Below, in pieces: positions 1,143-8,256 of a stretch of 16,397 nt of DNA; the stretch's first letter is position 1, and every line of letters starts with the position of its first letter. A program made the position numbers and the translations under genes. The notes under the pieces are model-generated. The model did no database searches, had not been told where the DNA came from, and saw only the letters and a program-made list of their open reading frames with translations. The DNA comes from a virus (taxonomy: Duplodnaviria; Heunggongvirae; Uroviricota; Caudoviricetes): positions 1 through 16,397 of the IMG/VR virus record IMGVR_UViG_2778261693_000004; one strand, 5' to 3'.

Positions 1143-1703
1143 TTAGTGCATGATGTTTGCCATCTCATAGGCGTCAGCCAGTAACTCCATCTCTGACTTG
1201 TTCAGCAGGGTGAATTCTTTCTTGCCTCCAACCACACCATCGGCATGAACAGGGACCAGCCAGGGGTATTTTGCTCTTACTTCAGCCGGAGCTGCATGCT
1301 GGTGGTGCCATCTACAAAGAGGCAATTGCTTTTTATGACAACCCGGCGCGGTACGACCGGCGATATGGTGCAGAGACATCTCATTAGATATTACTCCATG
1401 CATATAGCAGGCAATGCAGGGGAGAGTGCCAAGAGCATTGGCGATGCGCCGTTCCTCCGCCGTTGGTGTTCTCCCCTTCAAGCCACGAGATTTTATTTTT
1501 ACCGCGCTTTTCCGCGTTTTGCTGGCTGGTAGGCGCTCTTTCTGTTTAGCGATACGGCGGTCGAGAGTATCCCGCATTTTCTGATATTGAGATTCTCGCC
1601 AGACCGGATCAGCCAACTTCTCCCGTTGCCGAGCGATCGCTCGTTCTCTGGCTGCCTTCTGCCACTTGCGGCACTGTTCAATTTTTTGTTCGATTGTTTT
1701 CAT
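1143..1703 (-). CDS. ref: Ref, HNH-family endonuclease that stimulates RecA-dependent recombination
   Basis: 186 aa, matching P1 Ref length. Cys/His HNH-like cluster (CIACYMHGV…HHIAGRTAPGCHKKQLPLCRWHH). C1 operator and TATAAT upstream; position after cra as in P1. Confidence 0.75.
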   Translation of the reverse strand: MKTIEQKIEQCRKWQKAARERAIARQREKLADPVWRESQYQKMRDTLDRRIAKQKERLPASKTRKSAVKIKSRGLKGRTPTAEERRIANALGTLPCIACYMHGVISNEMSLHHIAGRTAPGCHKKQLPLCRWHHQHAAPAEVRAKYPWLVPVHADGVVGGKKEFTLLNKSEMELLADAYEMANIMH

Positions 1704-5383: not shown

Positions 5384-6529
5384 TTATTCAGCCGCCACCG
5401 GTTTTAACAAGCCAGCATCGAGCAGTTTACGCGTCAACCACTGTTGTCCTTTCCCCGTTAATTGGGGCGTCAGCCGTATCTGGTAGCCATCTTCATCATC
5501 CAGCACCACTTCTTTCACTGTGAAATATCCGGCGTTTATGTACTGCTGGAACGGCACATTTTTACGCCCGCCGGACGCTATCAGAATGCCGTTCTCCCGT
5601 AACCAGGCAAACAGCGCGTTTTGCTTCAGCCCAACAACCTTTGCAAAATTACCAATCAGGATCCCCTTAGCCACTGATACACGGTCGGCAAAATCGACCT
5701 TGGGGGCTGCGGCCACCAGTTGTTGATTTAGCTGGTGGGCCTTCTGTTCCAGTAGCTGCTTTTGTTCAGCCAGCTCGGCAGCCAGGCGCAAGGCTTCAGG
5801 TAGTGTTTGGGGGATTGCGACCGGTTGCTGTTCTTTTTGCCGGAAGTAGCTGTCTTCCAGTTTTTCAAAGAATGCCCATGCTTCATCTGTGTTTACGATC
5901 TTAGACATGCGTGCCGCTCCGCGTTCGGCCCAAAGAATTACCTGGCTTGTATATTTGCTAACCAGGTGACTAGTAGTCACCAGCCTTTTAAATTCCTTTA
6001 ATTTTTAACCAGTTAAGAGATAGTAATGCTTACCTTCTTCAAAGCGATCGGAGTTGCGAGACAAATTTTTACGAATATTAGCTTCATCGGTTCCATACCC
6101 CTTAGCAAGAGTTTCGGTCGTTACTACACGCACTCCCAGCCATTCCAGAACGGGAATTTCATCAGACTGATTCTGAACAACCACCAGCTCTGATTCCTGA
6201 ACTGAAGTTGCATGAATTTTTTCTGATTTAACGTTAGTTGCTTTCATTCTGTGTGCCTCCTTGCGTGCTTCGGCTGCGACGGTTGCGTAATTCAGATGAC
6301 CCTGTTCGAGCAGGTATTCACGGATATCGGTCACAGCGATAGCCTTTAAGCGCAGATAAACATCGCGCTTATCGACATCCAGATGCGGGTATTCCTTTTC
6401 AAGAATTGCTGCGAGTTCTTTCGCTGATAGAAGAGATTTAGTGCGGATCATGTAATCCGCAATCTCGTACGATGTTATTCGTGAGTGATTTATTTCCATG
6501 AAGTGGCGTCCCTGCCAGTTAAGTAACAT
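5384..6529 (-). pseudogene. Antirepressor-like gene (ORF6N/Rha-type N-terminal domain plus KilA-C/ANT C-terminal domain) split by an in-frame TAA at 6005-6007
   Basis: ORFs 6005-6529 and 5384-5980 are in the same frame. The upstream ORF stops mid-domain (…SDRFEEGKHYYLLTG*) and the domain continues after the stop (KLKEFKRLVTTSHLV…TDEAWAFFEKLEDSYF). The downstream part carries a KilA-C-like motif (GNFAKVVGLKQNALFAWLRENGIL…PFQQYINAGYF) and begins only at a GTG. Confidence 0.6.
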
Positions 6530-6599
6530 CCTGTCACCTACTGATTAGCCCATGTCAACTAATCAACGTCGAATATAATACCATCGATTAAAGAAATAG

Positions 6600-6616
6600 C
6601 AATACATTAGAGCAAT
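6600..6616 (-). promoter_or_regulatory. C1 operator-like site upstream of the antirepressor-like gene
   Basis: caatacATTAGAGCAAT, 14/17 to the reverse-complement consensus, 71 bp upstream of the ATG at 6529. Confidence 0.55.
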
Positions 6617-6617
6617 T

Positions 6618-7664
6618 TTATCTAACGCTCGACGAATGACTTGTGATAGCGCCGACTCCAAGCGCGTAATCAAAGAACAATCGTTGATGCATCGCCAGCC
6701 TACCGTGCGTCTTCTCCCAATTATCGCGGTCACGCTCAATATCACGCTGGCATGACTGGCACAGAGGAATAGCATAAATGTCATGCGCGCATAATCGACT
6801 ATAACGAACGATATAAGGCGTAATGTGAGCGCCAGCTCCCGCCGCTCCACACCCACAGCATGGACGGGAAGCAACAAAGTCCATGTACTCAGGTAATTTT
6901 AGCGATTGCAGTTTTGGTATTTTGAAATGCGCCATACCTGGGTCGGAGTCAACATCCACAGGGCATACTTTTGCACGCATCGGCGCGGCGCGTTCTTCCA
7001 TCATCTGAACATATGCTGTAGCGCGATCGTCATACGGGCGAATATCCGCCTCTTTCAGTGGTCCGCTATCCTGCGGAGTAGCCTTCATCTTATTTATTAT
7101 TGATATGCGGCAGACTTCTTCCGGCATCAGGTGCATCATGTTGCGCATGAAAGCCCACCAGCACAGCTCCTGAATACTTAAATCATGGCTATTTGAAAGG
7201 CCCATTTCCTGACGGGCGACATCCAGTATCCAGTTAACGCGATTATTGTGCAGCGTTTCTTTCAGCTCATTAAAACCACGCATCCGGTAATGGTTATCGT
7301 GATGCCAGCACAACAACACCGCGCTATTGTCTCGTTCAGCGTGGACAATATGGTTGTCACACCAACTACGATCTGCGGCCTGGCATTGACCCTCTTTCCT
7401 ACGCAACCACGCCACCAGCGCGTCAATTCCACCAATACGGCGAAACAGTTCATCGCTGTTAAAAAACGGCTGCAACGCCTCATTTGTTGCCATGGTTTGC
7501 TCGGTAACAACGAGGCCGTCTTCCATGTGCTCGATTAACTCACGCGGCACCGGCTCCATAATAAATTTACGGCCAGCCTCCACCAGCTTTCTGACCTCCT
7601 GATCCACTTTGAACGTGGCGAGGCCAAGCTCTTTCTGTACAAAGGGAGTAATTACGGCTTTCAC
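6618..7664 (-). CDS. Hypothetical 348-aa protein with a C-terminal Cys/His cluster resembling the Ref HNH-like motif
   Basis: GTG start with AAGGTG Shine-Dalgarno 4 nt upstream. C-terminus …[42 protein letters not shown]. At the position I recall for P1 pdcB, but I do not recognise the sequence. Confidence 0.6.
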
Positions 7665-7691
7665 ATCACACCTTTAATCACTGATTGGGCT

Positions 7692-7875: not shown

Positions 7876-8256
7876 CTACTCCGCAGAACCATACAATCTA
7901 CGTAACGTGGCGGCGACAGAAGATACAGATATCTCGCCAGTCGCAGCGCCTACAGTAAGGTCTGCCAGTTCAGGTGAATCAAATACCTGCACCCCATTAC
8001 GGCGTAGAAATAGCAGCGCACTGTTTAGCGCGGTACGCTTATTGGCATCATTGAATATATGCCCTCTCGCTGTAGCCACCAGGTAGGTGGCGGAGACTTC
8101 GAAAAGGTCGGTGATCTCTTCGTAGGCAACTCTGGCCTGAACTCTCCCGATAATGGCCTCTGCCCTACCCGGATCTGACATTCCCGGCAGGCCGCCGTAG
8201 CGGTTTATATTCGCATCATGAAGCGCAATAAGTTCTTCCGGTGATATATGCCTCAT
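7876..8256 (-). CDS. doc: Doc toxin (Fic-fold kinase) of the phd-doc addiction module
   Basis: 126 aa ([22 protein letters not shown]…[23 protein letters not shown]…), recognised as P1 Doc. Its start overlaps the phd stop. Confidence 0.95.

Follow-up and report, generated by a model that had tools for sequence, protein, structure and literature searches.

The open reading frame considered here lies on the minus strand of the window (the whole stretch of 16,397 nucleotides that was analysed) and encodes 348 amino acids, as the first-pass annotation had described it. The gene order in the open reading frame list, namely ref, cre and further genes on the minus strand, coi and c1 on the plus strand, and an Ant-like gene, the target frame, a 66-aa frame, doc, phd and humD again on the minus strand, together with the Pfam and PHROG assignments, identifies the window as part of a P1-like phage-plasmid and the target frame as its pdcB. 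It is the ortholog of phage P1 pdcB (AAQ14077; 98.4% nucleotide identity) and is 98.5-98.7% identical to the copies of P7 and SJ46; by pairwise DNA alignment it differs from the P1 gene by one extra codon (Ile189, a 3-nt insertion) and a handful of substitutions. The stretch surrounding pdcB is present at 100% identity in three 76.8-kb E. coli plasmids, where PGAP names the product 'DUF968 domain-containing protein'. In its original annotation the P1 gene is described as 'unknown protein function; 25 pct identical to E. coli P76162', while the product name of P1 PdcB in RefSeq NC_005856 is now 'HNH endonuclease'. The features that are referred to below are the following:

1143-1703, minus strand: coding sequence of P1 Ref, a RecA-dependent HNH nuclease (PF16786; PDB 3PLW)
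6575-6616, minus strand: C1 operator Olpa with promoter Plpa, transferred from the P1 annotation by alignment
6618-7664, minus strand: pdcB coding sequence, 348 aa, GTG start, TAG stop (open reading frame list)
6645-6899, minus strand: C-terminal Ref/YbcO-like His-Me finger module of PdcB (residues 256-340)
6729-6860, minus strand: Cys/His motif of the first-pass annotation (residues 269-312), placed by column counts and the ortholog alignment
7140-7493, minus strand: predicted central zinc-type beta-beta-alpha module of PdcB (residues 58-175), from AF2 and family conservation
7669-7674, minus strand: Shine-Dalgarno-like AAGGTG, 4 nt upstream of the pdcB GTG, read from the sequence and identical in P1
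7692-7892, minus strand: pdcA, 66 aa (open reading frame list and P1 annotation; phrog_3345, E 6e-40)

The neighbours pdcA, doc, phd and humD are common to P1 and the window, and so is the conserved downstream junction, in which Olpa and Plpa, with a promoter-like TTGCTA-16-TATTAT at 6602-6575, directly follow the pdcB stop codon. However, in place of the lpa-pacA-pacB genes of P1 the window contains a single 381-codon Ant-type antirepressor gene (5384-6529, minus strand), whose first ~70 residues are Lpa-like (Pfam BPP1_LPA) and are followed by ORF6N and KilAC/ANT. An in-frame TAA at codon 175 (6005-6007) splits this gene here into frames of 174 and 198 aa, and the gene is unbroken in the 99.8%-identical plasmid NZ_CP135674. 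As Olpa/Plpa is retained before the Lpa-N::Ant hybrid, this antirepressor-like gene would be driven from it and stand under C1 control. Since the element contains neither a full-length Lpa nor the pac terminase genes, it probably represents a P1 derivative that is defective and exists as a plasmid only (its size in NZ_CP119405 is 76.8 kb). An alternative-frame ORF of 104 aa (6563-6877, minus strand) lies inside the 3' end of pdcB; in the frameshifted pdcB variants P0005 and P0006 (10 member sequences, 365 aa), translation shifts into the frame of this ORF immediately behind CCGCGAA, so that the whole C-terminal module is lost.

The first-pass annotation had proposed a Ref-like, HNH-type Cys/His motif at the C-terminus of the protein, and the strings it quoted are present in the translation: CCGCG at residues 269-273, AH at 279-280 and an 18-residue string at 291-308, which together span window positions 6741-6860. 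The proposal was borne out at the level of the family. Pfam DUF968 (PF06147, gathering cutoff of 27.8 bits) covers residues 161-338 of PdcB over the profile positions 1-171 (E 1.2e-48, 165.9 bits), and the last 110 aa alone are matched with E 1e-28. Among the phage families, phrog_96 ('HNH endonuclease') gives a full-length match to PdcB (E 4e-128), and phrog_1588 matches both Ref (1.9e-17) and PdcB residues 259-322 (5.8e-4). DUF968 and DUF1364/YbcO form group 7 of the His-Me finger superfamily, with Ref placed in groups 26 and 31 (Jablonska et al. 2017, PMC5714182). Thus, the membership of DUF968 in the HNH superfamily is already known from Pfam, PHROGs, RefSeq and the above classification.

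The DUF968 family was opened up by an exhaustive HMMER search of 1.84 billion representatives, which yielded 149 PdcB relatives; hardly any distant ones were gained from two additional word-indexed searches for homologs with alignments. A 51-sequence profile of the C-domain, built from the HMMER relatives, was aligned by hhalign to residues 86-146 of Ref (E 6.3e-5, probability 65%), with the pre-knuckle helix, PCxxC, HH and PLCRxxH all in register, and its best PDB sequence match was YbcO (3g27, E 0.11). The hhalign comparison of the shallow ortholog profile with Ref (E 0.12) was uninformative, and the sole PDB match of this profile, L15, was spurious. No match to PDB was obtained with the full-length DUF968 family profile or, by phmmer, with PdcB at full length or as its last 110 aa. 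The Pfam Ref model PF16786, to which the Ref of the window scores 170 bits, did not match PdcB, again at full length or as the last 110 aa, at E up to 10, and the NCBIfam and PADLOC models were likewise without a match to the protein. Since direct BLASTP of PdcB against the Ref of the window also gave no match, the resemblance of the two proteins, which is more than chance, is visible at the profile and fold level only.

The first AF2 run, on 14 close orthologs, left the C-terminus of PdcB unfolded (pLDDT <50), and Foldseek on that model was meaningless. The second model, computed from a 41-sequence family alignment, has a mean pLDDT of 88.1 and consists of a small N-terminal beta/alpha part (residues 1-55), the central module, a helical linker and the C-terminal module; the N-terminus of the protein is predicted as folded (pLDDT 79-97). 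In the C-module the model has a helix at 258-266, the zinc knuckle, beta strands at 281-285 and 298-302, and helices at 303-311, 313-320 and 323-337, that is, a beta-hairpin and helix core with a zinc knuckle, as in the His-Me/HNH fold, and a globular HNH core resembling 3PLW. Foldseek hits of this model were HNH-enriched, not significantly. By the predicted fold, Ref, which is encoded 5 kb away in the same element, is the nearest solved structure to the C-module. A bare zinc ribbon, which the first-pass annotation had named as the outcome that would speak against its proposal, was not what the prediction gave: the beta-beta-alpha core is full and has flanking helices. The C-terminal ~85 residues of PdcB make up a Ref/YbcO-type finger of the His-Me (HNH) superfamily, stabilised by zinc.

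The same topology of helices, knuckle, beta, beta and helix is repeated in the central module, which both AF2 models predict with pLDDT 83-97 (helices 62-90, knuckle C94...C102, beta 106-111, beta 114-119, helices 120-129, 132-153 and 164-173). Its family-wide motif reads C94 ... (C/H)102 ... C119-W-H-(H/C)122-D-N, with C94, C119, W120 and D123 conserved across DUF968, and it likely forms a second Cys/His zinc site, with C94, C/H102, C119 and H/C122 as the putative ligands. The hhalign comparison of the central module with the C-module is weak (E 0.0018, probability 15%), in register, and the central module may have arisen long ago by duplication of the C-terminal His-Me finger fold and have diverged since. 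A Pfam search with PdcB residues 1-175 found no family, and the module had no PDB sequence match.

Among the closest known relatives of the protein are DUF968 proteins of lambdoid prophages, such as E. coli YdfU of Qin, which have the same two-module architecture and a length of ~320-370 aa, and which share with PdcB the zinc scaffold CxxC...PLCxxC and the central CWH[HC]DN module. However, YdfU-type proteins keep DPHH...KAHD...CxxCHxLH, while P1-type PdcB is without the equivalents of HH, H306 and H310 and has C292 in place of K. Their genes also differ in location, since the YdfU-type ones are found in the nin region, between the replication genes and Q (PMC5714182), and pdcB adjoins lpa. 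YbcO/DUF1364 of the DLP12 prophage (PDB 3G27) is a single 96-aa module that retains AH...CSACHDEID, whereas PdcB has Q in place of the YbcO His and ~255 extra N-terminal residues. Ref and PdcB share only 9% identity. Ref keeps HH112-113, H133-134 and H153 and carries a 76-aa basic disordered tail at its N-terminus (PMC4330346), whereas in PdcB no equivalents of the Ref histidines, H153 among them, were found and folded N-terminal modules stand in the place of the tail. Apart from these relatives, identical YdfU-type N-modules (key-column string CHSENTRH...CWHCDNQ) were seen in P0057, P0089, P0091, P0037 and P0071, joined at varying breakpoints to fragments of tail-tip J, tail-collar, portal and capsid proteins; real fusions were rejected, as these sequences look most likely like chimeras of assembly or prophage recombination and are uninformative as to function.

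The active-site columns were compared in an alignment of 84 C-modules, with 65 representatives from outside the P1-type clade and 17 P1-type PdcB sequences, which are 65-99% identical to the window protein. The other DUF968 members follow the pattern C-x2-C ... D-P-H-H ... K-A-H-D ... P-L-C-x2-(C/H)-H-x-L-H, with His at the equivalents of positions 284, 285, 306 and 310 in 61, 65, 63 and 62 of the 65, respectively. In the P1-type PdcB these positions are occupied by Y/F284, L/I/M285, Q306 (in all 17) and E/A/S/V/R310, and Cys292 stands where the others have Lys. The presumed Cys4 zinc site, C269, C272, C302 and C305, is invariant in the clade (17/17) and predominant in DUF968, and the clade keeps H294-D295 and P300-L301 as well. 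A His at position 280 is confined to the P1/P7 lineage, the other orthologs having R, Q, N or a deletion there, and the substitution H280R occurs already in the 97%-identical variant P0003 (114 member sequences).

The placement of the family HH depends on the alignment. The first-pass annotation had set the AH of PdcB against the HH of Ref, and this holds in an almost gapless alignment and in hmmalign, where the family HH falls on A279-H280, but not in MAFFT and hhalign, which put the HH of Ref and the family on Y284-I285. An '11-residue omega-loop deletion' in PdcB, suggested by the MAFFT alignment, was rejected as an artefact of gap placement, because C272 and D295 are 22 residues apart in PdcB against 23 in the DUF968 family. 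In His-Me fingers, the catalytic His is found at the end of the first strand (PMC5714182). Since the predicted strand 281-285 ends at I285, at the position of the catalytic His, the model favours the Y284-I285 alignment over that with A279-H280. With either alignment, the aligned sequences indicate no conserved His at the position of the general base and the loss of the helix His: the C-terminal end of beta-1 is Y284-I285, H280 is not conserved, and at the start of the core helix, where a metal-binding His or Asn would be expected, the invariant Q306 replaces the His of 63 of the 65 family members. Canonical DUF968 members, which are presumed nucleases, give a weak match to Pfam HNHc_6, and PdcB, at full length or as the last 110 aa, matches none of the Pfam HNH-type models, which is consistent with degeneration of the PdcB site.

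The module bearing these replacements is not decaying. Among the pdcB orthologs, pN is 0.07-0.24 against pS of 0.43-0.88, and dN/dS, where computable, is 0.05-0.14 in all parts of the gene and 0.05-0.11 for residues 256-340, with the synonymous sites near saturation, so that the C-module is under strong purifying selection. Thus, it is very improbable that the C-terminal motif is a decaying remnant, i.e., a pseudogene-like tail or a plain functionless zinc ribbon. For such a remnant speak the loss of the catalytic residues and the frameshift of P0005 and P0006 right after CCGCG; however, besides the low dN/dS, neither the length nor Cys4 varies among the 17 sequences, the most distant of which is 65% identical, and the predicted fold is a full beta-beta-alpha with flanking helices. 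An active HNH/His-Me endonuclease acting via the C-module, perhaps on recombination intermediates like Ref, is the more serious rival, although still an unlikely one. It can claim the presence of the His-Me fold with Ref as the best structural match, the label 'HNH endonuclease' of phrog_96 and RefSeq, and the H280, H294 and D295 of the window sequence, with which Q306 and E310 might make up a non-canonical site; HNH variants are known in which N or another residue takes the last metal position. Against the active nuclease that the first-pass annotation had in mind stand the replacement, in every P1-type PdcB, of all four His that the family conserves at 94-100%, the substitution or absence of H280 in orthologs otherwise conserving the module under strong purifying selection, the lack of an acidic or His residue for the metal directly before H280, and the missing match to any Pfam HNH-type model. 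The catalytic centre, if there is one, might alternatively lie in the central module (residues 58-175), whose LCWHHDNH resembles the LCRWHHQH of Ref, as a divergent Ref-like centre with the C-module assisting. This is less probable still, as the end of the first central strand has no conserved His, with the columns 108-111 varying (H/Y/K/R/F), and the hhalign comparison of the module with Ref gave only E 0.36 and a probability of 0.2%, in addition to the absence of Pfam and PDB sequence matches.

The first-pass annotation had further considered a nuclease function tied to the phd-doc addiction module, and in the window the arrangement is suggestive: the first 17 nt of pdcA (7876-7892) lie within the end of doc, pdcA ends 27 nt before pdcB, all are on one strand, and no terminator-like site was found between doc, pdcA and pdcB in the window and P1. 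The 17-nt overlap suggests translational coupling or co-transcription of pdcA and doc in the P1 lineage and, along with the 27-nt gap, the AAGGTG and the lack of a terminator, makes co-transcription of pdcB with phd-doc plausible in the window and the P1 lineage. PdcB, with PdcA, could then be a functional extension of phd-doc, acting, for instance, as a regulator or nuclease effector that is expressed along with Doc. However, phd-doc is already a complete two-gene type II toxin-antitoxin system, no PADLOC model covers PdcB, and the association does not extend across the relatives. In four P1-like lineages with pdcB orthologs at 65-71% identity (E. coli, Klebsiella and Salmonella; contigs of 50-94 kb), the genes downstream of pdcB are always lpa, pacA, pacB and c1, whereas the upstream genes differ and are mutually unrelated, and tblastn for phd, doc and pdcA found none of them within 4-5 kb of the pdcB orthologs (loci L002-L009). 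Thus, these comparisons lend no support to the tie to phd-doc, the adjacency appearing to be accidental and limited to the P1/P7 lineage, and an extension of the addiction module is hardly to be expected. The upstream variable region that replaces humD-phd-doc-pdcA in the divergent P1-like plasmids includes a Macro-domain gene, in L002 only, and DUF6884 genes in L002, L005 and L009 (coordinates of the Macro-domain and DUF6884 genes: L002 1017-1664 and 3518-3961, L005 2984-3745, L009 1881-2945). A distant relative of pdcB (29% identity) belongs to a lambdoid prophage and has the replication gene P and DNA methylases on one side and the antiterminator Q on the other, which corresponds to the nin-region location reported for DUF968 (PMC5714182). 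As for the gene itself, pdcB is among the most conserved genes of P1-like phage-plasmids (PMC9603915), proved dispensable for the lytic growth of P1 in a CRISPRi screen and a deletion survey (PMC10695390), and is still listed as 'unknown' by the makers of pdcB::kan (PMC10067587).

From the replacement of the family His on a zinc scaffold under purifying selection, the most probable reading of the PdcB C-module is a His-Me finger that is under selection but nuclease-dead, or non-canonical at the least. With moderate confidence, we hold that it has ceased to work as an HNH nuclease of the canonical kind and serves as a binding module held together by zinc. It would descend from the putative nuclease module of the lambdoid-prophage DUF968 proteins of the YdfU type, encoded in the nin region. 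The P1-type clade would have kept the four zinc Cys and H294-D295, with the general-base His and the two catalytic-metal helix His replaced by Y/F-L/I/M, Gln306 and the variable residue 310. The resulting pseudo-nuclease could bind DNA or protein non-catalytically and would work jointly with the zinc beta-beta-alpha module that is conserved in the centre of the protein, and not as a metal-dependent endonuclease; pdcB is a non-essential accessory gene with a conserved position directly upstream of lpa-pacAB. Against the nuclease-dead reading, the window PdcB does have H280, which in the near-gapless alignment falls on the invariant catalytic His of the family, H294 and D295 are invariant, and a metal might in principle be held by Q306, D308 and E310. 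A more specific proposal, to be taken as speculative and with low probability, is that P1-type phage-plasmids keep an active Ref along with PdcB as its catalytically dead structural relative. PdcB may in such a case bind Ref-like substrates (RecA filaments, D-loops, branched DNA) without cutting. By doing so it may have a protective role, or it may compete with nucleases (Ref or host enzymes, for example) or regulate them, either while the plasmid is being maintained or when late gene expression and packaging begin.

In terms of family classification, the finding is an ordinary one that was known before, and it does not suggest that the phd-doc addiction system has a nuclease arm; the degenerate active site of the P1-type clade is one small new point. 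Its main value is that of a correction, as the databases propagate 'HNH endonuclease' for P1 PdcB though the family-conserved catalytic His of the clade are gone, and copies of the protein are found in P1-like plasmids of E. coli, Salmonella and Klebsiella, with 4,062 sequences in one 90% cluster. If PdcB is nuclease-dead and yet strongly selected, it would offer a clean case of a His-Me pseudo-enzyme in nature and also a handle on the function of the DUF968 family.
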